From assembly GCA_003971905.1 (NCBI GenBank), contig RSEE01000041.1:186001-250000 (forward strand): a stretch of 64,000 nucleotides of DNA. The letters are read 5' to 3'. The DNA comes from Moniliella sp. 'wahieum'. Its lineage: Eukaryota. The notes under the pieces were generated by a model. The model had not been told where the DNA came from. It worked only from the letters and a program-made list of their open reading frames with translations, and ran no database searches. This document shows positions 7,924 to 52,401 of the stretch, in pieces. Made by a program: the position numbers and the translations under genes. The number at the start of each line of letters is the position of its first letter. Positions within the stretch are counted from its first letter, which is position 1.

Positions 7924-8676
7924 GGACAAGTGGATGGGGATCGTTCACGTTCAATGCTGCGCCGACCTGGCAGCTTGGGCTGGGGCGCTGAGGTTATGGT
8001 CAAAGGTTGGTTGTGCTCTTTGTGTGGGCGGGGCTAATTAGCCTCGAGATGGAAACCGCTGATGCGCAAAAATAAAAAGGAAAACAAAAGGAAAAAGGTA
8101 ATTGAGGGAATCATTAATCAAGCGATGCGCTGTCTGTGGCACGTGAACGGACGTCCCGCCCACACCAAGTCGACCCGTGTATGGTTGGCTGTGGCAGGCG
8201 CGTGCAATGAGATGATAGGGTCGGGGCGAACGCTTGATGGGTAGAGAAGATTGAATGTGGGGCGTGCAGCGCCAACAAACAACAATCCTCTTGAAGCCTA
8301 TTGTGAAGCTCTACAGTGACTAATGTTAGCGCTTAGCTCGAAGCTGGAAGGGCCTTTTATCAATCACCACTAGTCAGTCATCGAAGTCATCAACATACAA
8401 AACCCACGCGCCCGTCAGCATCTGCCATCTCGAGGTGGATGACCATTTTAGACAATCGAACTCAAAAGCGGGGGAAGAGGTTGCCAGTTGTCAGACAAGT
8501 TCCAGTTGTACTGCTTTCTACTACTGTCTCCATTCAACATATCCATCCGGGCAGCCCACCCCTCGCACCTAAAACGTCGGCATCCTTCTTGCTGATCCTG
8601 CCTTGGTGTCCATGGTGAATATCCACCAAGAATCACTGGGCCCGACGGATACCTGCACCACCGAAACATCCAACGA

Positions 8677-10106: not shown

Positions 10107-10197
10107 CTTCCCCATTTCCCATTTCCCATTTCCCATTTCTCCTTTCCGCTTTCCTCTTTCCTCTTTCCCATTCTCCTATTCCCAATTCCCATTCCCC
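10107..10197. repeat. Pyrimidine-rich 7-bp-period tandem array (CCCATTT)4 decaying into CTTTCCN/ATTCCCN units
   Basis: cccatttcccatttcccatttcccattt at 10111-10138, followed by ctttccg ctttcct ctttcct ctttccc ... attccca attcccc attcccc. Confidence 0.8.
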
Positions 10198-14458: not shown

Positions 14459-14794
14459 GGGCGGCTGGGGTGGTGGTAGTGGTGGTGAAGGAAAGGCTGG
14501 CGGCGGCGAGGCTGCGGTCGGATGCGATCGATGCTGGATGGGATGGATGATGGATGATGCATGATATGCCGATGATGCCATCTTCTTGCCCCGAGGCTGC
14601 ATTTGAAATGTACAAATCCAGGCACATGCGGATCTGTTTCCACAGCAAGCGCCTCTCGGATCTGATTCGTCCGGGGTACCAAGCAACTAGCCGCTAATCA
14701 CGTAGCTACTTCTGCGATCCTCGGTCTGGCCGCAGCAACTACTCCCCCGCCGCCGTGGCACGACCCACCTCGGGGCCCACGGTGCTGGCCAGCT

Positions 14795-22848: not shown

Positions 22849-24183
22849 GGTCCGGATCGGGCATGGTGGTGGAAGGTTAGGCAGGCAAGCCTGATCTGGT
22901 GCTGAGGGTACTCCGATGAGACGGAGTGGAGAGGGCGTCAGCAGGAGGTCGGGCTATGCAAAACGGCGCCACCTGTGTGCGGTGTGGCTGCGCTGGTGGC
23001 AGGCGGTAGGGCCGAGCGGTTGCGGCGTTCGCCGCTCGGTACGTACCAAATCGATACTCGATTCTCGATTTCCCAGCACGGGGGGGGGGGCTTGGCGCCG
23101 CTCACAACCACAACCACTCCTCGGATGGGCACCCGCACCTCAGCGTATACTCAGTACTCACCACAGGCACGCGTTTCGTGCTGCAGTCACACGTTTGGCC
23201 CTCAAGACGATGGCCGTGGACGCAACGGAGGTGGGGGAGGCGGGTCGATAGCAAGGCGGCGGAAGAGAATGGGGCCTAAGATTTAAGAGGAAAGCAGGTG
23301 CAGCCTTTGCATCAACCTGCCGAGACGGGGCGCCCCGCAGGATGAGATATAGCTTTCTCTCACACACGCCATGCGTTCCTGCCCCGGAATAGGAGATCGC
23401 TCGATTGCACCTCCCCCCCCAAAGCTCTACTAACCGGACAACGCCTTTCGGGCAGGCAGTCCCCCTAATTAACAGCACGTGTCGGTGGTCGTGTGCGCAC
23501 AGCTTAATATTGCACGCGCTGAGGGCTCAGATGGTGCGATTGGCCATTTGATTGGCTGCCCAATGGCTAGTGGCTAGTGGCTAGTGGCGATTGATATTGA
23601 CTGGTGGCAGTGCTGCCCCTGTCACAACAACACACATCATGCATCGTACATCATCCATCATCCATCATCCATCATGCACATCTACCCCGAGCCAGCCGAG
23701 ACCAACCAAGTTCTTGCGTAGACACCACAATGTCCGTCCGAGCTCTGCGTCCAAGCCAGGCCCAGTGCGAGTACTGATAAACAATACCGAGCACTGAGCC
23801 CACGCTGAGCGCTGGCTCGATGACGCGATGACGCCCGTCTGATCAACACGGGGCAAAGCGGCCCATCGACCCCATCGCCCAGAGTACTGAGTACTGAGTC
23901 TACTGTACTGCATCCCATCCACCCCCGCAGTTTCATGTGACAAGGAAGATTGGCCCGCCGAATCTGACACGGCAAGCCGCCATGGACGACGGCCATGGAG
24001 GGATGGAGGCAACGCCGCGTTTCACCGCCATGCCATCTTCTTGTGTCCCTACTCGGCTCCTGGAAGTGTGATATTAACGCAAGGAACGGAACCACCTTGT
24101 GGTCCAAACCGCGTCTCCCCCTCAGGCTCCTCAGCCTCACTGCCGTTCGCTCACGTCCCCTTGAACGATCGTGGCGACCATGC

Positions 24184-26039: not shown

Positions 26040-26338
26040 GGCGGTGGGGGTGGGGGGCGCTGGGGCTTGGTGTTGTGCTTGGTGCTGGTGCTTGGGCCCG
26101 GTGCTTGCAGCGTGCGAAGGCCAGCGCTGCCACACGGTTTGAGCCGTCGGCTGGAGAGCAGCAGAAAAAAACCACCTGCGCGGGCGGAATGGGCCACAGC
26201 GGGTGGCGCGGCGGAATGCCATCGCTGTTGCGATGGGCTGCATAATAACGTTGCAATATTGAAGGCGCCTTGACGTAATGTTTCAGTGCACTTACCAATT
26301 CCAATTTGTAAGCCGCATGTGTCACGGGCATCTTACCT

Positions 26339-28140
26339 CATCGATCCTCGATCATCGATCATCAGGTAGATCTCAACGGTCAAATCATTGCTTCGCCGAT
26401 CCTCGATCCTGGCCCCTTGTCCATTTCGGACCAGGGCATCCTTTGCTTCCCTTGGCCTTTGGTCTCAGATCGCACTCGTATCGCCAGACCCTTCCATGCA
26501 CCTGCTGGGAGTTGCAAATTAACTGGCCAACCCAACGTCCAACACGCTTTTTCGTGCGAACCGAACCAGACCGAACCTCAATAATGCGCCCGGTGATCGG
26601 TGATACCACCATTGACTTGACGTTTGACGCGTGACGCGTGACGTTTGACGCTCGTTTCCGCGTCTCCCTTAGCTTTTAAGCCTTGCGCGTTATGCGTTAC
26701 GAACGGGAAGTAGAAGAGATCGATGAGAGGGCCGGTGCGGTGAAAGGTCATGTGACCGGGTTTCACGCTTAGGACAAACCCTTAGGCCTTAGGCCTTACT
26801 AGGCCTTACTAGCTCCTAGTTACTAGCTTGACATGCATCACATGTGACATGTATGGACCGTGACATAGGCCAGTACTGTGATTATATCTTGAACAGGGCT
26901 TGGCACACATGGCACACATCACGGTGACTAGTGACTAGTGAGCTAGTGAGCTAGCTAGTGAGTAGTGACTAGCTACTGATTGCTTGATGCCGGCCGGTAT
27001 CCTGGGACGCGGAACTCAGCGCGTCAGATTTAAGCCGGAACAGGCCGGAACATCAAGTGGGTACGTTGAACGAGCTGAGTGCTTTGATGTTAATTTGATG
27101 CATGATGCATGATGCATGATGATCGATGAGACTGACGTACTCAGTACCAAGCCACTGGCGACTGAGGTATTGAGCGCAAGGTACTGAGCGCATAACGAAC
27201 CTAAGGCCTGAGGCGATGCATGGTGCATGCTCCATGATTAACTCGGGTACGAGGAGACCATTATCGATTATCCTTTAACGTTTAACGTTTAACGTACCTT
27301 GAACGCCTTGAACCTTTAAGCTTTACGCGTTGCGAGCTTTGCGAGCGCTTTGCGTTTTACAGGTTTAACTTGTAGCGGGTAAGGCGTAACGGTGACATGT
27401 GACATGCATGACATGAATGGCATGCCACATGTCACATGTCACTGTGATCGATGGCCAATTGATTGAAAAGCGATTGCAACCAAGTTGATAGCATTTTAAA
27501 TTTTACGGTTAAGAAATGCACCCATGTGTCTCACGTTTTGTACTAAACGTACTAGTCACCGATCACGATGTCACATGTCACATGATGCATGATGCATGAT
27601 GCATGACTTGTGGTGGCGTAAGAGACCATTACGCGGTACGCGTGACCGGTGACCGGGGACCGGGGACGCGTGACGGTGTGATTAGGGACTTGTGACTCGG
27701 GGACTGGAGCATGTGATACACGTATGACATGGGAGATCTGAGATCTGAGATCTGAGATCGGATGCAGATGCGCCTGGTGCGGCGGGGGCTGAATGGAAGG
27801 GTGTTTGTGTCTGGGTTGTGCGTTGCGTCGGATGTCCCGAATTGCAGGGCCTGGTTTGTTTTCGGTCCTGCGTCCCGCGCGTCACACCGTCACTTGATGA
27901 TTGATTGACCGATGGCCGACTGCATCGACGCGTGCATCATGCATCAGCCGAATGGGTAGGGTCGCAACGCAGGCCGCCGGCGGTATGCAGGGTGCGCATG
28001 GTCCAGCACACTTGCCCAACGACTCGGTGTGTGACATGTGCGTACGTGAGTCCAACGATGCTAGTTGCTCCGTGCCCGCACCCATTCATGAACCCATCCA
28101 TGCAGTCACGGCAGTCACTAGTCACTACTCACTAGTCACG
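26339..28140. repeat. Large island of 7-bp-period palindrome-plus-spacer mini-arrays
   Basis: ACGCGT x2 (26627-26639), AGGCCT x2 (26784-26796), ACATGT x2 (26840-26852, 27427-27439), ACTAGT x2 (26927-26939), ATGCAT x3 (27098-27117, 27585-27604), AACGTT x2 (27277-27289), AGATCT x3 (27734-27753). Confidence 0.92.
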
Positions 28141-28336
28141 GTGCGCTGGCTAGCTGACGATCCCAGGCACACACTGCTGCTGGTGGTGTGCTGTGCCGAG
28201 AGGCTGCAAGCAATCTTCGGCCGCGTTGGCTGAACCAATCCACGCCTGCTGGCAGCTGTGCGGGTGCCCCTTGCAGCCTGCCGTTCCTCCTGCCGTCCCC
28301 CCTGCTGCCCGCCCCACCGCCACCGCCCCCCGATCG

Positions 28337-31300
28337 ATGGCGTACAGCCAGCGCCAGCCCGTGCCTCCGCCGCGGATGACGACGTGTATGCGCGCCTACG
28401 CCTATGCGCCGCCGCCTGGCCTACCGACCGACCCGCCGAGCATGCCCGTGGGCGCGCCGCCCGCCCGCGTACGCCCGCCGCCGCCCGAGTACAGCCCCAG
28501 CGCCGCCTACCGCCCGCCGCCGCCATGCCGCCGCCGCCGCCGCCGTACCCCGTGCGCTATGCAGCCGCGACCGCGAGGCGGAGCCAGACGCACGCATGCC
28601 GCCCCCGCCGCCCCGGCCCCCTCGGTGCTGGGCCATGCGCCGCGCCCCTACTCGCCTGCCGCCCTCCCCACCGCCATCCGCCCGGGCCCCGCCGCTGCCC
28701 CTGGCCCCGGCCCCATCCCCATCCCGCCCCCGCCCATCGGCCCCGCGTCGTCGCCGTTGCCCTCGCCAGCCCAGGCGGGCCACCACCGCCCCCCTGGCAC
28801 CCGGGCATGCCGCCCCGCCGCGCGGGTACGAAGCGTCCCTCGCCCGCCGAGGGAGGCGGGGGAGGAGCGCGATGCGCATGCAGCGTATGAGCGCGAGCGC
28901 GCCCAGCGGGAGTATGAGTACGAGTACGAGTACGAGTACCAGGCCCAGGCTCAGGCTCATGCTCAGGCTCAAGCTCAGGCTCATGCTCACGCCCAAGCCC
29001 AAGCGCAAGCCCACGCCCACGCTCAAGCTCAAGCTCAAGCTCAAGCTCAAGCCCACGCTCAGGCTCAGGCTGCCCACGCCCAAGTCGACCCACTTCGCCA
29101 CGCGTCGCCTGCAGGAACGGAGGAGCGCGAGTGGGAGTGGAAGTGGGAGCGGGACAACGCGCGGCGTGGTCCCCATGCGCTGCATATGCTGCCTGCTGGC
29201 GAACGTACACGCGAACGGCTGATGGCGTACGAGCGGGAGTATGAGCTGAACCGCCAGCAGGGCGTCGCTATGAGTCTTCTCCCGCCCTACGCTGCTCCTC
29301 CTGACTCTGACGAGGGGAAGAGGATCGAGCGCAAGCGCAAGCGCTCGCGCATGCTCATGCTCATGCCCATGCTCAACAAGCCCATGCTCAACATGCCCAC
29401 GTTCAAGCGCAGACCCAAGCTCAAGCTCAAGCCCAAGCACACGCCCAAGCCGAAGCACAGCACAGGCACAGGCAGTACAAGCTGAAGCCGAAGCTCAATC
29501 TCAGGCACAAGCTCAAGCAGCTCAAGCAGCCGAAGCAGCTCATGCAGCTCAAGCAGCCGAAGCAGCCATGCAGCACAAGCGCAAGCACAAGCCCAGCCCA
29601 AGCCCAAGCCCAAGCCCAGGCCCAGGCCCAGATGGACGCCGCAGCTCATGCACATGCTCAACACATGGAGGCGTCCATGCCCCCACTGAGCCGAAGCGGA
29701 TGCGCACGCCCTTGCTCATGTTCCGGCTCATGCGCATGCCCAGGGCGAAGCGCACCGCCTCCGACCAACTCCGACGATGGGCAGGATGCCTCTTCCGCTG
29801 CAATCGCCCGTGGTACGAGAGAGACCGATAGAAGGGACAGGAGCGAGCGTGGCGCGCGTGGTGGCGCCCGTGCCGGTCCATGCTACGGCAGGAGGAAGAG
29901 GGAGTGTGGAAAATGGTGTTGCGCCGGGCACGGTGACTGCGGGTGCCGAGGCAGCTGGCACCAGCTCCTCGCCGCCTCTGCGCCCTGCCTCGGCCCAGCT
30001 CCCGGTTCCCGCCCGAGAACCGGTAGGGGTGATGAAAGAGTTGATGCAAGCCAATGTCGAAACGTGGTTGTCAATTGGTGTGTACAGTTTGGTTTCCGGC
30101 TGCTCGCTATGATATACTAACCTACCCCCCCCCCCCCCTTCCCGCGACGGTAGCCTCGGCGGCATCTACCATGGGCGGTCGCGATGGCTACGAACGGGCG
30201 ATTGAATCGATCCAGAATGCACTGCAGCACGATCCCCACTCGTTGGCGGCGCACCGAGCGCTGGGCAACGTGTACCGGGACATGGAGCAGCTGGACGTGG
30301 CGGTGGATGTGCTTCAACGCGCGCTCCAGCTGGCCCCTGAGGATGGCGAGACGTGGGGGGCGCTGGGCCACTGTTACCTGCTGATGGACGACTTGCAAAA
30401 TGCGTATGCGGCGTACCAGAAAGCGCTCTACAACCTGCCCAACGCCAAAGAACCACGGCTATGGTACGGGATTGGGATTCTGTACGACCGGTATGGTCTG
30501 TTGGACCAGGCCGAACAAGCCTTCTCGAGTGTGGTCAGCATGGACCGCGACTTTGACAAGGCCAACGAAATCTTTTTCCGTCTCGGGGTGATTTACAAGC
30601 AACAGCGCAAGTTTGCCGCCAGCCTCGAGTGTTTCCGCTACATTCTCCCTGACCCGCCCGCGCCGCTGAAACAGGCCGATATCCAGTTCCAAGTGGGCCA
30701 CGTGTCGGAACTGCAGGGCGACTTGGGGGCGGCGAAAGAAGCGTACGAGCGGGTGCTTGCCGAGCTGCCCCAGCACGCCAAGGTGCTGCAACAGCTGGGC
30801 GGCCTGTATCTTCACCCCGCCGCGCCATTTGCAGACCACGAGCGGGCGGTGGAGTACCTGACCATGTCGCTGGGGCGGATGCGGCGGATGCGCAAACGTG
30901 GTACCTTCTCGGTCGCGCCTTGATGGTTCAAGAAAACTACGACAAGGCGTACGAGGCGTACCAGCAGGCCGTGTACCGCGACGGGAACCAAGCTACGTTT
31001 TGGTGTTCGATTGGGCTGCTGTACTACCGGATTGAGCAGTACGAAGATACGCTGGATGCGTTTAGTCGTGCCATTCAGCTTCACCCGGGTATCCCCGAGG
31101 TTTGGTTCAACTTGGGCTGTCTGTACGAGACGTGCAACAACCAATGGCAAGATGCGCGGGACGCCTATGTGCGCGCGGCCCAGTTGGACCCGGACAATGC
31201 AGTGATCGCAGCGCGCTTGCGCTCCTTTCTCGCCCAACCTACCCAGCCTGTGCTCCCGCCCCGCCGACCACCAACGCCATTGGATGTCCCCCCGACGGTG

Positions 31301-32291
31301 CAGTACGTGTCGGGCTCGTACGAGCCGGCCGAAGGCGAAGAGGGGCCAGCGGCATCCCACGCCGCCGTACCGACTCTGCATGCGCTCGGGCCTGGAATGC
31401 AAGCGCCGAGAATGGCGAGCGGGCTACCTGCGCTGCAGCCCAAGGCGGGGGTCCCTCCCTCGTTCCAACGGCCGAACGGGAACGTGCCGACGCAGCGCCC
31501 AGTCCGCTTACCACGTCTGACGCGCGCCTCCCTGCGAACGGGGAGCTTGCGCAGCGCCCTGCTGGGCCCGGGGAGGGTGGGAGCCCGACGCTGCGTGCCC
31601 AAGACGACGGGTCGGGCGTGGGACGCGAGCCGGCGAGTGGTAAGAAAAAACGACCTTCGCCCCGCCCGCGCCGGAAAGCAAAAGTGTCCGATCCAGACGC
31701 CCCGAGAACGTAAAAGAAGAGCTGCGGGAAGCTGATAGCGGTGCGGTGGATGCGCTACTGGGTTTGGCCGGTGGCGCACGGTACCAGCAGCCTGTGCGGC
31801 CTCCTTCGGCGCCTACCGCCCCACCGGCCCTTTCGCCCCCACGCTCGTCAGTGGGGTCAGCGACCAGCGCACCAGCTCTGGCTAGCGTGCCGACGGGACG
31901 GCCTGGCAGTGCACTCGGTCGAGCCCCAACCAAGCGCGAGCGCTGGACCGCCGCTTCGCCCCTACAGCGAACAAGCGGCGTCGGGTGTCCAGTACAGGCC
32001 GTGGGCTCGAGGAGCGGGGACCTAGTCCTCCCTCGCATCCTCCTTCGCATCCCCCCTCGCGTCCTCCATCGCGTCCCCCCTCGCGTGCTACTTCGCGTCC
32101 CACCTCGCGTCCAGGCACCGAAGCGCACCCGTTGGTGCGCGAAAAGGTCATTGCCAGTCCAGGTGCCAGCGCTATCTCTGCCACTGGTTCCGAGCCTCTC
32201 CCGCGACCCTTCTCGCCCCTGTCCCCGGACGAGCCGCACCTTCGTCCGCACTCGGCCGGCGGCCGGCGAGCGCGGCCGGACGGACCACTGA
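28337..32291 (+). CDS. SSN6: General transcriptional corepressor Ssn6/Cyc8 (TPR protein) with long Pro-rich, EY- and QA-repeat N-terminus
   Basis: ANVETWLSIG, GETWGALGHCYLLMDDLQNAYAAYQKAL, EPRLWYGIGILYDRYG, KANEIFFRLGVIYKQQ, KAYEAYQQAVYRDG, FWCSIGLLYY, EVWFNLGCLYETCNNQ are hallmark Cyc8 TPRs. Ends are approximate. Confidence 0.93.
28910..29650 (+). repeat. Coding hexanucleotide repeats: (GAGTAY)5 = EY repeat and (CARGCN/CAYGCN)n = QA/HA repeats in SSN6
   Basis: gagtatgagtacgagtacgagtacgagtac at 28910-28939; caggcc caggct ... caagct caagct at 28940-29070 and again at about 29390-29650. Confidence 0.85.
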
Positions 32292-36257: not shown

Positions 36258-37054
36258 AGACCTAGTACCTATATCCTGGGCAGCTACCATAATGCATCCA
36301 TCTGTTCGCAGTCGTTTTACCCTGTAGAACGGCACAACTCAGAGAGAGCCAGACACAACCTCAGTATTCAGTCCAAACTGTGGGGGGCGCGCCTCTCGAG
36401 AAGAGTAGGCACCGGTGTGAAGATAGGTTAAGCGTTAAGGTACATCGCTCACCGAGCCCGTGTCCCCCCCAGAATCCGAACCACCTTCATTAACGACCGC
36501 CGGAGGCTACTTGCTGGTGGTCTAGTGGGATTTGCTTGTTTCAATTGCAAGTGCCATTGAAGATGGATTGGGCAAAAACCGGGGAAAAACAGACAAAAAA
36601 CAGGCAACGCGTGACGGGACGTGAAACATTCATTTTGCGGCTCTTTCGCCGAAAGCGTGGTCCGCAACCCTGTCGAGCAGTGATCAAGTGTGTGCCGCAG
36701 CAGGGCGCCAAACACTCCTGCAATGCCAGTGGCGTAGCGACTTTTACAACCCTACGTTCTGTCTCTTCCAGCTTCAGGGTGCTTCGCTTGGCTCTCGAGC
36801 ACCTCCGCCTCCATTCCTCCGTCGACGGCCAACAAACCGAAGGTGTGTACCAGGATTTCTTTTGAGGGCAGCGTACGGAAAGATGGCTGTCGATATTGTG
36901 GCCACCTCGGTGACGCTCGGCCTGTGTCAATCCGCACCCTGGGGCTGGCCATGGGTTGCGGCGCAGCCCGCCTTTTATGTGTCCCGCGAACGAGCGACGA
37001 GAGAGGGAATGGGCGTGGTGGCTGACTTGCTTTACGTTGACAGAATAACTCAGA

Positions 37055-37523
37055 ATGCCCAAGGGTGCGCAAGGAACCAAGTACCGCATGACCCTCGGTC
37101 TCCCCGTGGGTGCCGTGATGAACTGCGCTGACAACACGGGTGCCAAGAACTCTCTTGTCATTGCTGTGCACGGCACGGGTGCGCGCCTCAACCGTCTGCC
37201 GCCGCCTCGGCCGGTGACATGTTTGTCGCTTCGGTCAAGAAGGGCAAGCCGGAGCTCCGTAAGAAGGGGATGTCACAACTCCTTTTTGTCTTTTTTCTCG
37301 AGATGATGACTGACATGCTGGGATAGTCATGCCGGCCATTGTCATCCGCCAGCGCAAGACGTGGCGGAGGAAGGACGGTGTGTTCCTCTACTTCGAGGAC
37401 AACGCTGGTGTGATTGTCAACCCCAAGGGCGAAATGAAGGGATCGGCCATCACTGGCCCCGTGGCCAAGGAGTGCGCCGACCTCTGGCCCCGTATCGCCT
37501 CCAACGCCGGCACTGTTGTTTAA
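37055..37523 (+). CDS. RPL23: 60S ribosomal protein L23 (uL14)
   Basis: [24 protein letters not shown]...[11 protein letters not shown] | [64 protein letters not shown]. One intron at about 37268-37326 and a 1-nt deletion near 37200. Confidence 0.97.
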
Positions 37524-40384
37524 GCGTCTGTCTGTCACGTTGGGCATGATGCTGTACGGAGTGCTATTCTAGAACAGATCCTCTTCGGTTAGCGCTCTTG
37601 TCCTTCTATGTTCCGTGTGGTGTGCTCATTTCAGTGCACCCATCATGCTTCTCCCCCGCATGCCCCCCCATCCAAAATTGACATTGGCCTCGGGTCTTTG
37701 GCCGTCCCCCCTCCCCGTTGTCTGTTTCCTCTAGCTCGATGTCGTTAGACCGATAGGGGGTTCGACTAACGAGTCCAACCCGGAGGCTGAGATCAGGTTG
37801 CCAGATGGATCTGATCGTGAAAGGTTCCTTCATGGTCCCGCGACATCCGTAACAGTTATAACAGGTCTCACGGACGCACAAGAACAGTTTTGTTTGCCCC
37901 TCATTTCATTTTCGCCTTCCGATCCCACCCAGTATTCTCTTCCACCTTTTTGCTCATCTGCTGCCTTAATAGAGAAGTCGTTTAACACACGGCATGTTCC
38001 CTTGTTGAAGCACTCATCAGCCCCCCCATGGCGATATCCATGGTGCCGCCGTGTGCCCATTCAGGTTGAAAGTTGAACCAAGTTATACTTCGATCATTTC
38101 ACGCAGCCATGATGGGTTCTTGGCCTTGTTGGGCGTTATTGGCACACGAGATCTCAGCTTTGGGTCAATAGTAGCGACGTCCTGGTCCACCCAACCATGG
38201 AGACCGCAATGGATGCTGAAGTGTTTGGAACAGTAGCGTAGGCGATTGATTGCGGGCGAGAGATAGTGTTGGTGGTAGGAAGCAGAACGAGGGCTATATA
38301 GGAGAAGGCTACTAGTCGCTGGCTTACGCGTGTACGCGCGCATCAGCAGTCTTCGGGGAGCTCATGGAGCCTCGGGGCTATAGTAAGGTCGAAAGTGCAC
38401 CGCGATCAGCCATGAAGCCAGTCACTGTCGCAACACCATACAAGAGTCAAGAGGACAATGCGCTGTCTTGATGGTTGTTGGACCAACAGAGGTTCTCCAA
38501 GTACTAATGTGTTCTTCTCAGCCACTTCACCGTGGATCTTCCCCAATTCTAAATGTTCCATTCTTCGTATGCCACAGTAAATGGTCTTTTGGCCACGCAC
38601 GGTATGTAATTCCCATAATTGCATCCGTGGGGACAATCTTCTCGCCACTCACTCTCTCGTCTTGGTCATTGATGACGATTTTGACATAATGTGGCATCAT
38701 AATGGGGTCCGTAAGCTCTTTCAATACCAACTATGGGAACCATGTGACCCCTACGTCTGTGTTAATCACCTTCACACCCTTATTCCCTAACCGTAACAGT
38801 TAACCCCTCCCATCTTTTTCAAGCGCGCAAGCTATCCTAAGGCCTAAGGCATATAACTTTAAGAATCGTTTCTTCCTTTGAATCTATGTGATGGTAACGG
38901 TGTACGGGCACCCGCTCCAGACGCTGTCGTTGGGCATATGGGCATCGCGCGCTCTGCCACATATAATGTGGAAGGCCCCATTAGCTATATAGCGCCTCTT
39001 GTGATTTCTCTTGAATCTCCGCTACACATCCTTCCCTTGAGGGTGGGAGCGCGGGACCCTTTTTTCTGGACGGTAGTTTAGGGGTATAAACCCTTGGACA
39101 GATCAATCGGTAGCTCGTACATTAATAGGTCCTCCTCCAGATCCCGGTTGAACCGAGCGGGTGTAGAGCGAGGGAGAGACCCTCTAGTTTTGGTGGCTAT
39201 GCCTGCGTGCAAAGGCCGCAGCCCAGACCCTCCGAGGTAGGAGCCGCGTACGTAGGTAGTTAGACCAGCTGAAGGGGTCCAGGAGCTTAGAAGTTATCCT
39301 CTATTCTCCTTGCAGCGTTATCACACTCGGTACGCTGTAGCTGGCGGGAACAGACAGAGTCCTAAAGAAGAGCAAGCGCTACTGATGAGAGTAACCGCGG
39401 CTTGCAGTGCACTCGACGGAAGTCGTAAATTCGTAAGCGTAAGAGTAGTAGAAGGTGGAAGGGCGAGAGAGGAACTGGGTGTCGGGGAGACCAAAGGTAG
39501 GAGACAGAATGGTCGACAAGGACCACAGCTAGCAAGCCTTAGACATGGCTGCTTATATACAGCAGAGGGAACCAGGCCTCAAGTGCCTCATGACAGGTAT
39601 AGACAGAATGCGGGGCACTTCCCAGAGAGGTAAAGACTAATGCACAGCCCTTGCTCTCCATGGCGCTGACGCTGCGCGTAGTCGGGCGCAGCACCAAGGT
39701 TTCTGACAAGACTGGGCGCATTGGGCACAAAGCATCGTGCCGATAACCAATGATGCGACCATTATGGCGGGCCGCTGATGATATCCGCAGCAAGGATAAA
39801 GTGTCGACTGGCTCTCTCTCGCTAATCTAACCGGACTGACGCGTGTTGGGCTGAGATGTCTATGACATGCGGGGCTCAGCGCGCTCAGCGTCCGGAGATA
39901 ACCGGAGCGCCCCGTAACAGCGTTACACTTTTCCTCGTTCCCGTGTTGGGATAGCATATTATGTGCAGAGTGGAGGGTATCTTCCCACCGAGCAATAAGG
40001 GCCTAGCAAAAGGAGATTGTGAAGACTGATGAAGTCGATGAAGAAACTGATGGCCACGTACTGATAATATAGACCGCACGAAAGCCACTAGTAACTCGCA
40101 TTCAAACAAAGAGGGGAGAGAAGACGAAGTATTATTACATGAACCATCATGCATCAACATGTTCAACACGCACCAACTAGTACGCATCACGTTACGCTGC
40201 ACCCTCTTTTTCCGGCTTCCCTTTTCCATGGAGTGCGATGACATGTGCTTGTGACAGCCGCTGTTGCCAAGATTTGGGCCTCTAACAACGCCACCATAGC
40301 AATTAGGAACCGAAAAAAACTGGACTTTCGTATCGAAAAAGCAATTCAAAATTAAAGCAGATCATATGAAGGTGTGAGCACATG

Positions 40385-41545
40385 ATGAGCTTTTAAGCTT
40401 TAAGTGTGGGCTATAACGGAGAGCCTGGGGGAGCCTGGTGAATCCGGTGAATATAGGTGACTGTGGTGACATATAACGACTATATAGTGACTAGTGTTGA
40501 CGTTGATTAGTGACTCTAGTGACTCTAGTGACTATAGTGACAAGCGACTATAGTGACTCGCTAGTGACTAGTGACTAGCGACTTCTGATAATGACGTGAC
40601 GCGTGACGCGTGGCTAGTGACTAGTGACTAGTTTGACTGGTCGTCCTAGTGCATGATGTATGGCAGGTCCCTTATAGCCACAACAAGTGCACACTTACCG
40701 TATGGCCCCACAGTATACGCTCCGCCCCTCCATATAGTTGTCTTCGTTATGTCCTTTTAGCAATCGTTCTTCGGTAACCGGTAACGCGGCAACCGGTAAT
40801 GAAGGCTTAGCGCTTAGCCTAAGCGCTTAGCAAGCGCTTCTATGGTAGTGTCATGGATTTTTTCTGAGTCTATGAGATGGACTAGACCGAGGAGGCAAGC
40901 CCAGAGGCAAGCCCACATATGGGCATGCGGAGAAGAATCGGTAGTCCATCAGTTACATCAGTCTTCAAGCCTGTGAAGACTTTGTGATGAGCGTCGTACG
41001 TTGAATACTGTGGGAAACACGGGGCCTCTCTCAACGTCAAAAGCGCAGTGGTATCGTCATCGCCACACGTCATGACGCTGTGGAGAGCGTGGGTAAAAGA
41101 GTATGGCCCACTCACGCGAGGAGAGACCTGAGGCTCACAGGCCTGAGGGCTTGAGGCGGGCCAGGGTAGGTTTGATGGGCCTAGTATGCTCGAGTCCTCA
41201 GACCTGGGCCTTCGGCCTTAGGCCTTGGCCTCAATATTCAATGCGCTCAAGCTTCTTGAGCTCGTCAAGCTTCAAGCTTCAAGCTTCGAGGCGCTGAAGT
41301 GTTCGATACGATGTAGATGTTTTGATTATGTGACGGATACTAATGTCTGCGGGTCACTGGCGGACTGATCCATGATTGCACATGTTGGGCTTTTGCCGGC
41401 ATTCGCTTGAGGCCACGCGGGCATCACCATCCCCTGGCACAGGTGCCGAGGATTCAATATTCAAGCTTCAAGCTCCGGGCTGCTGATGCCTGAGCCTCAG
41501 ACCTTAGGCTAGAACCTTAGGCCTCTCAGACTCTAGGCCTTCCGG
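40385..41545. repeat. Island of palindrome-plus-spacer mini-arrays (7- and 9-bp periods)
   Basis: ACTCTAGT-G-ACTCTAGT-G-ACTATAGT 40513-40538, ACGCGT/ACTAGT chain 40599-40632, AAGCTT x3 41267-41286, AATATT-C-AAGCTT 41456-41468. Confidence 0.9.
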
Positions 41546-42783
41546 GTACCATATGAATGGCGCCAGCCACAGTAGTAGGGTGTGTGTACACGATGTGAAC
41601 TCATGTCGAAGATGGGGGGTTGGACGACATTGATCCGTCATCGAGCGTCATCTCATCGCCCCATTGGAGACAAGAAATTTGGGAGGGTACATTCGCCCCC
41701 TGCTTCGTCAGCATGTAAAATGTATCTGTTTGCCTTCTTCGACGGCGTAGCCCCGACCAAAACGGTCGACACGAGGCTTGTGGACCCCACAGAGAGGACA
41801 CCAGAAGAGTCGCCGTGACCCTACTGGATTGTAGAGTGACATGGGAGGAGGTGTGAAGCTTGAAGGGTGAGGCATGAGGTTTGCGAGGCCCGAGGCGGAG
41901 AAAAGAGCCCGCTCTTCACTCTGCGGACGACATGCTGTTGACGGGGGTGGAGGTGGGATGCAGGTTACCCAGCCCTTGGAGGCAGAGGCTGTGAGTTTGT
42001 GGCGTATTCGAACACCCATGGCACCCAGACTCACGTACTCATCGATCATGAACGCATCAACGTAACACTCGCCCACGGCGAGTGGCGCTGGTTTCTGCAC
42101 CCTGGCCAGCCAGCCTTCCAACCAGCAGGGCTTGCTTTGTTTTGTTCAAACACCCCGTCCGGCAACAGCTTCAAGCTTCATTGGCCGAAGGGTCGGGTAC
42201 GCTGAGCATCGGCTTCCGCTGCGTTGAGCACGTTGAGTGCTGTCACCACCACCACCACCCGTGTCGGCTTCGGCCTCCATCCTCCTCTGCGGCCCATTCT
42301 CAACGCATTCGCCCTCCTCCCGTCTCGCCCCACCTTGAACGAACAGGCTGCGCCCCTTCTCCCTGCCATTGCCCTGGTGGCCACCATCCTCAGCATATCA
42401 ACGGATCAGTGCCTCCGTGCCTCAGCACCTCAGCACCTCAGCGCCCGCTGCCCATTCAGCACGCCGGGGCCTGCAGGCAGCCCCGTTTAACAAAGCTTAC
42501 TCTCCCACTCCCGTAGAGGCGTGATCTTCTTCCTTTTCCCTTTCCTTTTCCTTTCCCCTTCCCCCTCCCCGCCTAACCCTCTCCCCTTCCATCTGCTCGA
42601 AAGCGCGCCAATTCAGCGCGTGCCATGTCTGTGCCCCGCACACGTTTTCCTCATCCGCCCACTCGTTCTGGACGTTCGTTTCTGCTTCGTAATTCACCAC
42701 CGAACACCATCAGTCGAAGCAGAGCGTTGAGCTCAGCTCTAATCACTCCTCGCTATGCCTCCCTCCCCACCTCGCCGCTCAAC

Positions 42784-45700
42784 ATGCCCTATCCATCTTC
42801 TTCTATCCCGTCTCACTCTGAACCAATTCTCCAGCCTCCTCACACTGTCTTCGATCCTCCTTCCCTCCAACGGGCCCACTACCCTGCACGACTTGCGCCC
42901 TCTCTCCTAACTTCAGCCCCGTTCCATGCCACATCCTCAGTATACGAAGGGGATCACGGGCAGCGTTCGGCCCCAACGGCGTCGCTAGTGCATACGGGGA
43001 GCTCCCTGTATGGCTGGGCGATCGTGACACTTCTGCATTGGATCCTGAGGTACGTTTCTGTTCAAACTCTTTTGATGCCGATGGCCTGCCTCCGCTGCCA
43101 GTTCTGGGAGACTAGAGGTACTAGCTAGCGACTTACGGGACTGGGTACGGCTGCACACGTGAGGTGACGTGCACGACTGTATCAGTGCTGTGGCTTCTAG
43201 GGGGAACGCCAGGAGTCGTGATGCTGCTTACCCGCGTGCGCGCGGCGCACGGTACCGTCTGGGGGCCAGGGCAATGAGCAAAAGCACAGAAGCTGACCGT
43301 GTCTGCCTTTCTTCACTTCGTCCTTTTTCGAATGCCGTTGTTGGTACCCAACCGTCTGTTCACCACCATTGCGTTAAAACAATCATCGATCGTCGTGCTC
43401 TGATCCTCGCTTGTGACTGCGTGGGGTGACCGATACGATGTGCTTGTGGTTACGCCGTGGCGCGCATTCCCCGCCAATGCGCTTACTGCGCTATTGGACG
43501 TTTCTGGACTCGCACCGAACGCGCTGTGTGCCACCCGCAATTCACACTTCTTTGCATGGCCGCTATACCTACGTTATCAACTCGCCACTTGTCTACTATG
43601 CAACTTGCCGGAACCGAACTATTCATATGTGATTGCCTCGACCTCAGCTTCAAACCCAACATTCACCTTCTTCAACATGGTTGCCGTCGCGTCATGAGCA
43701 CATGATCTCCATGGCTGCCCCCACCACTATTTCCACTGAAGCACCGGTTAGCCCCGCTATTCCTGCCATCTCTGCCCGTCCCGTCTTGAACCCCGACGCC
43801 CTACAGACGAGGCATGAACCGGAATTGGCTCATTTGCCAACTCCAACGACCAATGAGTATATGGCGTTGCTGCTGGCCGCTGGCAATCGTTCTCCCACCG
43901 ACAGCCCCATCCATGCGTTCGCTTCATCCTGGCTGCAGACTCAAACGGGTATGGGGCAGGCCTTCGCGAGACCCAGTCTCCCTCTGCACATTCTCCTGTG
44001 ACCACTTTCTCCCGTTTTCCGTCGGCCCCCTCAGCTCCCTTACACGCAACACAAACTTCTTTCCCTTGCCTGGACTCACCCTCCCTTCCAGACCACCATG
44101 ACGAGGCCAGCCCGAAATTGTCGGTCAGACCACCCATTTCACCTTTGCATGCGTATCAGTCAGCCTCCCGCTCCCGGCTGGTTCCGACTTCTTCCCCTCG
44201 TACCTGGGCCGACATCGACGCTGGACCAACGAAATATCACCCCAAGCCATCTCCCGTCATCCTGGCTCTGGGCCTGGTCCATCGTTGGATTCTGGTTACC
44301 TCCCACCCCCTGCCTTGGACCTTGATCTTGCTCGTGAACTCGAAGCGGCTTCTTCCCTTACTCCCAGCCGCCCGAACTGGGCTACACCAGTCGCTCTAAG
44401 GGAACAGGTGTACTCCTTACCTCATCCTACTAGCTCAGGAGGGAGATGCGAAGATGAGTATGGGTACCAGCGTCTAAGCCATGCTCCTACGTTCCTACCT
44501 GGTTCTGCCTGCCCCCCGACCCCCCAAGGAAGCCAGCCGTGTTCGCCGCCCTTCAACCAGAGTGGCAGGTGCGTCGAACGCGAAGCCGAAGTGCCTTAGC
44601 TCCACAACAGGCTGCCACTTATGAACAAATGCACACGTTGGCCGCCGGCCTACCCCTAGGCCCAGAGGCCAACGCTCTGATGCGCCTGGCCCAAATGGAC
44701 CTGTCTTCCTCGAACGCAGATCGCCGGATAGGCATTCTGCGCCGACAGACGACAGGGGCCGTCGGCCCTAACCTACAGGGTGGGCTGTCGCGCGATCCGC
44801 AGATGGAGTACCAGGCTCAAGCTCACCAGATACGCTTTGCTTCTGCAGTACCCTCTTCTTCTTCCTCGGTCCATACATCTTTGCAATCCTCGTTGCTCCC
44901 ATCCCCCTCTTCTGGGGGTGGGACTTGGCCCTCTGTCCCCATCCCGCCCACTGTACCCTCGGCAGCCTCTTTGTGGACTGACCAAGTCCCTTCGGACCAC
45001 TCTCTTGGTACTGAGTTGGACACACGTCTCCCGGTGCAGGAGGGACCTACGTTCCCCGCTTCAATGCGAGATTTGACCGCCCCTGGGCCAAGCCTAGCTG
45101 ATCCAATCTCCAGTCCGACGCAAGACCAGCAGCTGACCGACCCGAGTACATTCGTCCCTGCTATCCTCCCCCATGGACAAGGCCTTCCCGGTTCTTATTA
45201 TTCCCACAAGCCCGGACATGTGGCACGTCCAGTCGAGGCCCGCACCCCGCCAACCGAACCAAGTAGTGCAGCATCGCACGGACGCGCAGGGCCGAACGTA
45301 CCTACGAGCCAACGCAAAACGGAGCTGTACAAGACGGAATTATGCCGCAAATGGACCGAACGGGGGAGTTGTCGATATGGTTCCAAATGCCAGTTTGCCC
45401 ATGGAGAGAGCGAGCTGCGACCTGTTGAAAGGCATCACCTCTACAAGACTCAGATATGCCGCACCTTTGCCAACACGGGGGGCATTGCCCTTATGGGATG
45501 AGGTGCACTTTTCTCCATCCTGACTCGGACAACGTTGCCACCCAACCTCCTCTTCCCTCTTCCCTGACCGCAACTAGCCAAGCCGGGGGTGCACAATCAG
45601 GATCGAGTGGTTCGTCCTCGGCCTCGATGCCTCCCTCCCTGGTGGGGAAGAAGGTGGTGCCTGTTCTTTCATCAAGCCCAACCGATCGTAAGCATTCCCC

Positions 45701-52076: not shown

Positions 52077-52401
52077 TGGCCGCGGCCTGTCCAAGTGGGG
52101 CTAGCGTGGCGGACTGTGATATGTGATGTGCATGTGATGATCGGTCTTGAACAGTTCACCGCCCCGCCGCATTAAAATTTAACAGCCCATTGCCCCCGCC
52201 AGCTGTGGCAACCACATGTTGCTCCACCGGGGTCCTCTCTTCACTAGAACTCCTCCATGCCGCCGACCTATATTCGCGACACAAGGCAAGCACGTTAACT
52301 AGAGCGCCATTCCTATCTTCGAGTCATTACACCAACTCCCCAACACAGCCCTAGGCAAATCAAGCATGTCAGTCGTACTCGGTGCGCAGTACAACATGCA
52401 C

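Follow-up and report, generated by a model that had tools for sequence, protein, structure and literature searches.

A stereotyped 7-nt scar-like insertion centred on T-N-A in basidiomycete non-coding DNA and its probable compound array at a TGA lattice

A fixed-length duplication is the hallmark of transposase strand transfer, and its length differs among the described systems. The hAT target duplication is 8 bp with the consensus nTnnnnAn, RAG/Transib shows a 5-bp target duplication, and PIF/Harbinger a 3-bp one, i.e., TWA inside a longer palindromic target, and Harbinger excision is mostly precise. Short palindromes are also made or perfected by copying of the opposite strand, i.e., in quasi-palindrome template-switch mutations and in snap-back templated end-joining insertions.

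Footprints of Ac/Ds in Candida carry P-nucleotide insertions of up to 3 nt derived from flank hairpins, and 28 footprint types occurred among 128 excisions, according to the portion of PMC5873905 drawn on here. In basidiomycetes, 7-bp duplications were described for the hAT7 families of rust fungi and for Kyakuja (KDZ) elements (Kojima 2025, PMC12730594, likewise cited in part). No prior description of the scar pattern reported below was found in a literature search that covered subscription journals thinly.

The window, i.e., the whole 64,000-nt stretch of Moniliella sp. 'wahieum' DNA that was analysed, contains a TGA-rich locus at 40438-40640. The original prediction described this locus as palindromes of 4, 6, 8 and 10 bp chained through one invariant T-G-A junction and likened them to P nucleotides. 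It was partly confirmed: the P-nucleotide-like reading is supported, and the model of variable arms and odd-only spacing is not. The locus is read here, with a probability of about 0.6, as a compound array, since decayed, built from one stereotyped scar found throughout the non-coding DNA of the window. The odd-sized units of the locus look like rarer outcomes of the same repair, and it is of value that +7, +9, +11-like and +5 products are displayed within 200 bp.

The 7-nt gain and rarer products across the window

The window is eukaryotic, with approximately 58% GC. Introns split its housekeeping genes, which encode Vps35, argininosuccinate synthase, a CCCH zinc-finger protein, the NADH dehydrogenase 75-kDa subunit and a Cid1-type poly(A) polymerase. 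Rfam families and tRNAs were searched and none were present in the window.

Exact tandem runs of period 7 numbered 49, compared with 3.45 in dinucleotide shuffles; periods 8 and 9 gave five and nine runs. Of the period-7 runs, 32 had a unit made up of TNA and a 4-bp palindrome, for which chance gives 2.7%. Run length peaked at 12 nt (20 runs); seven of these 20 had the register yzTNA-z'y'-yzTNA and eight its mirror, 15 together, and the 19- and 26-nt arrays hold it as well. The peak in this register indicates that the elementary event adds 7 nt to a site present in a single copy. The +7 motif of 12 nt itself gave 89 matches in 51 clusters, compared with 0.4 in shuffles.

The centre was tested without bias by the pattern X5-rc(first 2 of X)-X5, in which no identity of the triplet is preset. 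The centre triplet was TNA in 89 of 137 matches (TCA 40, TGA 31, TAA 11, TTA 7), whereas shuffles gave 9.6 matches in total. In chains of TNA-core-TNA, the 4-bp core was templated by a flanking dinucleotide in 54 of 61, where chance for either flank gives about 7. The left flank was defined as the dinucleotide left of the first TNA and the right flank as that right of the last TNA; the core matched the left flank only in 21 chains, the right only in 22, both in 11 and neither in 7. Switches of the core at a single TNA were found at 41454-41470 and 40597-40627. Thus TNA as the site, and the palindrome as an inverted copy of adjacent bases, are two parts of the original prediction that stand.

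As a negative control, 160.5 kb of other organisms' contigs around the NADH dehydrogenase gene were searched and gave 0 matches of the +7 motif. These contigs came from a metagenome scan with the NADH dehydrogenase ORF (24 loci, best identity 63%) and, being too distant for intergenic alignment, were used for this control only. A metagenome scan with the poly(A)-polymerase ORF found no relative, and no long dispersed repeats usable as an internal paralogue comparison were present in the window.

Of the 51 +7 clusters, only 1 lay inside a Pfam-supported ORF, though such ORFs make up 18.7% of the window (P = 3e-4). The densest island (Table 1) is flanked on one side by the Cid1-type poly(A) polymerase ORF, on the minus strand, and on the other by a low-complexity ORF of the plus strand, after which come TPR-repeat ORFs. 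Shortly before the TPR-repeat ORFs at 30045-31732, an open frame contains a long, imperfect repeat of hexamers and 12-mers at 28900-29700, with GCTCAA and its variants in up to 20 copies. This repeat probably encodes a low-complexity part of the gene to which the TPR-repeat ORFs belong.

Rarer products keep the full TNA-centred 7-bp duplication and add 1, 2, 3 or 6 inverted bases. In the +9 class, an intact TNA-centred 7-mer is present twice and the spacer is the reverse complement of its first two bases; at non-array sites three such products were found against 0.025 expected, i.e., those starting at 40437 and 40028 (Table 1) and GATGACT-TC-GATGACT on the minus strand at 8376. Exact nnTNAnn 7-mers were repeated with spacers of 0, 1, 2, 3 and 6 nt in 25, 5, 10, 3 and 4 cases, compared with 0.1-0.3 in shuffles. 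The spacer was flank-inverted in 3/5 cases with 1 nt, 8/10 with 2 nt, 2/3 with 3 nt and 1/4 with 6 nt. The 7-mer is itself palindromic in 4 of the 8 flank-inverted 2-nt cases, where inverted and direct copying are indistinguishable; among non-palindromic 7-mers with a 2-nt spacer the filler was flank-inverted in 3/6. The p=q=1 product, in which one base is replaced, was found at three loci against 0.07 expected.

These products bear on the length of the duplication. A duplication of 7 bp rather than 5 bp is indicated by about ten products with the 7-mer intact, which are the few unambiguous events. Tandem TNA.TNA was counted 51 times against 35 expected, barely above chance, and the duplicated block reaches two bases beyond TNA on each side. 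A 3-bp (TNA) duplication was rejected on the same two grounds, i.e., TNA.TNA near chance and products that retain seven bases. A Tc1/mariner-like model, with a 4-bp palindromic duplication and a 3-nt end remnant TSA, was also rejected, because the arrays start and end on TNA (12-, 19- and 26-nt register) and not on the core.

Some repeats have fillers for which the model proposed below has no template, i.e., ATGGCT, TGGCAT, CTAGAA, TTAA and TGCA. The three 6-nt fillers, in this order, separate exact nnTNAnn 7-mers at 398-417, 38685-38704 and 41502-41521 and are not templated by the flanks; they may be remnants of element ends. TGGC is common to two of them, to a (TGGCTAG)x3.6 array at 23564-23588 and to 40610-40616. 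At 27083-27100 and 52122-52139, nnTNAnn 7-mers are repeated with the palindromic 4-nt fillers TTAA and TGCA, which derive from neither flank. Plain tandem duplications of non-palindromic nnTNAnn 7-mers with no inverted filler were found at 23649-23675 (CATCATC x3.9) and 14546-14559 (GATGATG x2). These are either an outcome with neither loss nor P nucleotides or slippage.

The TGA lattice at 40438-40640

The locus lies upstream of the CCCH gene, within an 8-kb stretch (36.3-44.4 kb) without Pfam-supported ORFs. This stretch of approximately 8 kb (36300-44400) is bounded by the NADH dehydrogenase gene on one side and the CCCH zinc-finger ORF on the other and contains scar islands at 38.8 and 40.0-41.9 kb. 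In the 203 nt of the locus, the counts of TGA and GTGAC (Table 1) far exceed the 3.1 and 0.26, respectively, that the window rate predicts, and the locus holds 14 of the 83 GTGAC of the window.

Table 1. Features of the locus and related sites (positions in the window)
Feature	Position	Strand	Description
Densest scar island	26300..28150	.	26 exact +7 events, zero +9
GATGAAG-TC-GATGAAG	40028..40043	+	Second non-array +9 product: 7-bp duplication plus two inverted bases
Whole TGA lattice	40438..40640	+	21 TGA, 14 GTGAC; probable compound, partly decayed array of footprint units
GGTGAAT-CC-GGTGAAT	40437..40452	+	TGA-centred 7-bp duplication, intact, with GG reverse-complemented to CC as the two inverted bases; non-array +9 product
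ACTATATAGT-G-ACTAGT	40479..40495	+	10-bp, then 6-bp perfect palindrome; 11-nt unit degenerate
AGTGACT-CT-AGTGACT-CT-AGTGACT	40509..40533	+	Two +9 units; 8-mers ACTCTAGT non-palindromic
Two ACTATAGTG units, spacer ACAAGCG	40531..40554	+	Each one base off the +9 unit ACTCTAGTG; 8-bp perfect palindromes at 40531-38 and 40547-54
AGTGACT-CGCT-AGTGACT	40552..40572	+	11-nt unit; one base off AGCT, the filler predicted if both overhangs were kept
(CTAGTGA)x2.6	40561..40578	+	Exact array; canonical +7 unit TGA+CTAG
TGACG-TGACG, then CGTGA-CG-CGTGA	40592..40612	+	Period 5, then +7 array with core CGCG
(CTAGTGA)x2.7	40614..40632	+	Exact array; core switch from CGCG to CTAG across mutated TGG 40611-13
GCTTAGC-GCTTAGC-CTAAGC-GCTTAGC	40805..40831	+	7-bp duplication plus 6-base inverted tract, giving a 12-bp perfect palindrome at 40819-40830; central N complemented
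Perfect palindrome ACTATATAGT	40479-40488		
Perfect palindrome ACTAGT	40490-95, 40567-72, 40620-25, 40627-32		
Perfect palindrome ACTATAGT	40531-38, 40547-54		
Perfect palindrome ACGT	40594-97		
Perfect palindrome ACGCGT	40599-604, 40606-611		

The three strings on which the original prediction was built are present at the positions it gave. Among the 11 units cited as palindromes, 8 are perfect; in ACTCTAGT (40513-20 and 40522-29) and GCTAGT (40613-18) only the CTAG core is self-complementary. The T-G-A junction is constant inside the quoted segments, but these segments are a selection. Within 40440-40655, the 21 TGA-to-TGA distances are 9, 10, 9, 21, 10, 6, 7, 9, 9, 9, 16, 11, 7, 14, 6, 5, 7, 14, 7, 9 and 20, i.e., 13 odd and 8 even. 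Both 14-nt gaps and the 16-nt gap include a mutated TGA (TGG or CGA).

The locus was said to be the most informative spot of the window, and it does contain three of the exact +9 products of the window. By the exact rule, three +9 and three +7 events could be removed, and the locus collapsed from 231 to 183 nt. The 11-nt unit at 40479..40495 may have originated via TA expansion or may be a mutated +11 product. The period-5 pair TGACG-TGACG fits a -2 product, a class at chance window-wide (5 against 4.25 expected). The core switch across TGG 40611-13 is expected if both cores derive from a single ancestral site CG-TGA-CT.

Proposed hairpin mechanism and alternative readings

The DNA itself shows the sequence rule, the templating by flanks, the duplication of 7 bp and the range of products; from these we infer hairpins, a handling of overhangs and the kind of agent. 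A 7-bp T-N-A-centred site, yz-TNA-cd, would be duplicated like a target-site duplication. Both flanks would form hairpins that are opened, in most cases, at 2 nt from their tip, and each opened flank would have a 4-nt self-complementary 3' overhang, i.e., cd.d'c' on the left and z'y'.yz on the right. Usually one overhang would be lost and the other kept, giving yzTNA-z'y'yz-TNAcd or its mirror with a net gain of 7. Extra bases kept would give +9 or +11, and bases lost would give +5. Because each flank would add -2, 0 or +2 bases, unit lengths would shift in 2-bp steps (5/7/9/11). Because either flank could be kept, the core would be templated from the left or the right equally often and could switch at one TNA.

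The +7 product would turn the site into a perfect odd palindrome, yzTNAz'y', whose two overhangs would be the same self-complementary tetramer and thus cohesive. If these overhangs annealed, later events would again be +7 and arrays would grow. Every TGA of a chain would then descend by direct copying from a small number of ancestral TGA sites, and this would explain why the junction appeared invariant. Unit-level slippage and point mutation may later have blurred the locus. The likeliest agent would be a cut-and-paste transposon that makes a 7-bp target-site duplication and, like hAT elements, turns its flanks into hairpins, and this mechanism is probably the best explanation. The perfect 8- and 10-bp palindromes of the locus count against it, as they need an extra substitution or TA expansion.

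The agent itself was searched for within the window. No transposase domain (Pfam) was detected in the 92 ORFs of at least 170 aa, and none of 1229 tested pairs formed a TIR element flanked by an nnTNAnn duplication. These two results favour a transposon-free alternative, in which a host nuclease or repair pathway makes 7-nt staggered TNA breaks where chromatin is open, and the two inverted bases come from hairpin processing or from fill-in with snap-back synthesis. The grouping of scars in promoter-like islands also agrees with it. However, no host enzyme is known to make 7-nt staggered, TNA-centred breaks, and the fixed length of the duplication points to transposase strand transfer, so that this alternative is considered unlikely. 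In its favour, the outcome is more uniform than the transposon footprints in the cited portion of PMC5873905.

The original prediction had taken TNA as a mirror axis about which 2-5 adjacent bases are copied in inverted form, with palindromes of 4, 6, 8 and 10 bp and periods of 5, 7, 9 and 11 as equivalent direct products. In this form it is improbable. The generalised form W-TNA-W'-W-TNA was counted for each arm length k: k=1 gave 1 match against 3.6 expected, k=2 gave 89 against 0.43, k=3 gave 3 against 0.03 and k=4 gave 1 against 0. The counts for k=3 and k=4 are above chance, as symmetric arms of variable length would have them, but k=2 makes up 89 of the 94 matches and k=1 is at or below chance. 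N was the same in 89 matches and complemented in 2, both with a long inverted tract, which means that a 7-bp target is duplicated and not mirrored about N. The 6-nt case at 40819-40830 complements N, as a long hairpin-derived tract must. The non-array +9 products duplicate two bases beyond TNA on both sides, and this is not predicted by a mirror about N.

The spacing of successive axes, for which values of 5, 7, 9 and 11 with a mode of 7 had been forecast, gives a similar picture. The mode was 7 (23 against 0.33 expected); a spacing of 9 was seen 6 times against 0.47, in agreement with the mirror, and the others were 11 (2 against 0.40), 5 (1 against 0.63) and 13 (6 against 0.33). Even spacings were near chance except 14. 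Window-wide, maximal palindromes of 8 bp (191 against 191.6 in dinucleotide shuffles), 10 bp (61 against 49.2) and 12 bp (11 against 12.9) were not enriched, and 6-bp palindromes alone were in excess (867 against 756). Taken together, the spacings and palindrome counts bear out the mode of 7, but 5, 9 and 11 do not stand beside it as equals in a single series. Odd-only spacing is contradicted by the products with 1 or 3 inverted bases, whose periods are 8 and 10.

The longer palindromes were also not the direct products of longer inverted copying that had been supposed. Longer palindromic cores are mostly runs of CG, GC, TA or ACGT. ACTCTAGT and ACTCGCTAGT have the right lengths, yet they are non-palindromic. 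The direct +9 product at AGTGACT is the non-palindromic ACTCTAGTG, and the perfect 8-bp palindrome ACTATAGTG differs from it by one base.

Ordinary heptamer microsatellite slippage, with palindromic units favoured via slippage-promoting hairpins, is about equally improbable as the main process. Arrays do reach four copies. However, slippage cannot make the first product from a single-copy site, and the modal object is a 12-nt single event. Slippage follows no unit-sequence rule, whereas one holds in most period-7 runs; it does not predict a core inverted-templated by its flank, as in 54 of the 61 chains above, and it gives no account of TNA specificity or of inverted fillers of 1, 3 and 6 bases. 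As a secondary process slippage is needed. Two identical adjacent +9 units at the locus, i.e., one 9-mer doubled (ACTCTAGTG x2), mutated TNA-less units multiplied elsewhere (TGGCTAG x3.6, GACCGGG x2.4) and the period-7 arrays lacking TNA at 10111-10197 show that unit-level slippage must contribute. These CT-rich arrays (CCCATTT x4.1, CTTTCCT x2.9, ATTCCCA x2) are not accounted for by the scar rule.

It is highly improbable that selection has kept arrays of sites upstream of the CCCH zinc-finger gene for a transcription factor that binds TGAC or ACGT: the locus is non-coding, upstream of a gene and has TGAC 17 times in its 203 nt, but the core is dictated by the neighbouring dinucleotide, and no single factor fits the many different cores and the use of both TSA and TWA centres across the window.

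For the favoured transposon mechanism, a further step is suggested tentatively. A putative cut-and-paste element or nuclease of this basidiomycete might leave a scar that is a better, fully palindromic 7-bp target with cohesive hairpin-derived ends, so that scars attract and faithfully repeat events and write heptamer repeats into promoters. Microsatellites would then be born by a route that a transposon drives, and the scars would be a natural, genome-wide record of the offset at which this fungus opens DNA hairpins (mostly 2 nt; 1, 3, 4 and 6 nt in few events). If the scar reading of the locus is true, most short intergenic repeats of this fungus are not products of slippage, nor binding sites, but repair scars that a single enzyme system has left stacked on one another. 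It would explain how tandem repeats can arise at sites that were single-copy before, and promoters would have a continuous source of variation. The scars would also make up a large natural data set on how a basidiomycete opens hairpins and joins ends, for which few such data exist.

Comparison with known systems

Two features of flank-hairpin footprints were found in the window. A fixed-length direct duplication is left at the empty site, as in the nnTNAnn 7-mer repeats and the +9 class, and the filler is the reverse complement of the flank end, i.e., P nucleotides, in most cores, in most 2- and 3-nt spacers and in one 6-nt tract. Experimental footprints have heterogeneous joints with small deletions; in the window, minor products (+9, +11, p=q=1 and inverted N) stand beside one dominant outcome with 51 clusters, far more uniform than the 28 types among 128 Ac/Ds excisions. 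A resident element with matching duplication, TIRs and DDE transposase was not found within the window.

Quasi-palindrome template switches and snap-back insertions differ from these scars, as they yield no fixed 7-bp direct duplication at a defined triplet. RAG/Transib was rejected: the +7 product alone fits 5+2, but the products that keep all seven bases show a 7-bp duplication. PIF/Harbinger resembles the scars by a T-N-A centre in a symmetric target, but seven bases are duplicated here, not three, and N is mostly G or C. From the hAT consensus the scars differ by a duplication of 7 bp instead of 8 bp, in which position 3 is T and position 5 is A.

The likeness to Ac/Ds, to other hAT elements (Coen hairpin model) and to V(D)J P nucleotides is in the target duplication left at the empty site and in the short, flank-templated inverted fillers. 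The modal inverted tract is short here, as in Candida Ac/Ds, where it is at most 3 nt in the cited portion of PMC5873905. Unlike the diverse Ac/Ds footprints given there, the scar outcome here is almost uniform, and scars stack in tandem arrays with no element within the window. T1 and CNIRT6/KDZ of Cryptococcus were considered and set aside; the portions of PMC9942834 and PMC12810828 drawn on describe no 7-bp TNA target.

The hAT7 and Kyakuja (KDZ) elements are set beside the scars by description; the cited portion of PMC12730594 speaks neither of a target centred on TNA nor of footprints of this kind. These elements of Basidiomycota share with the scars the 7-bp duplication and the basidiomycete host, according to the same portion, and hAT chemistry would supply the flank hairpins.
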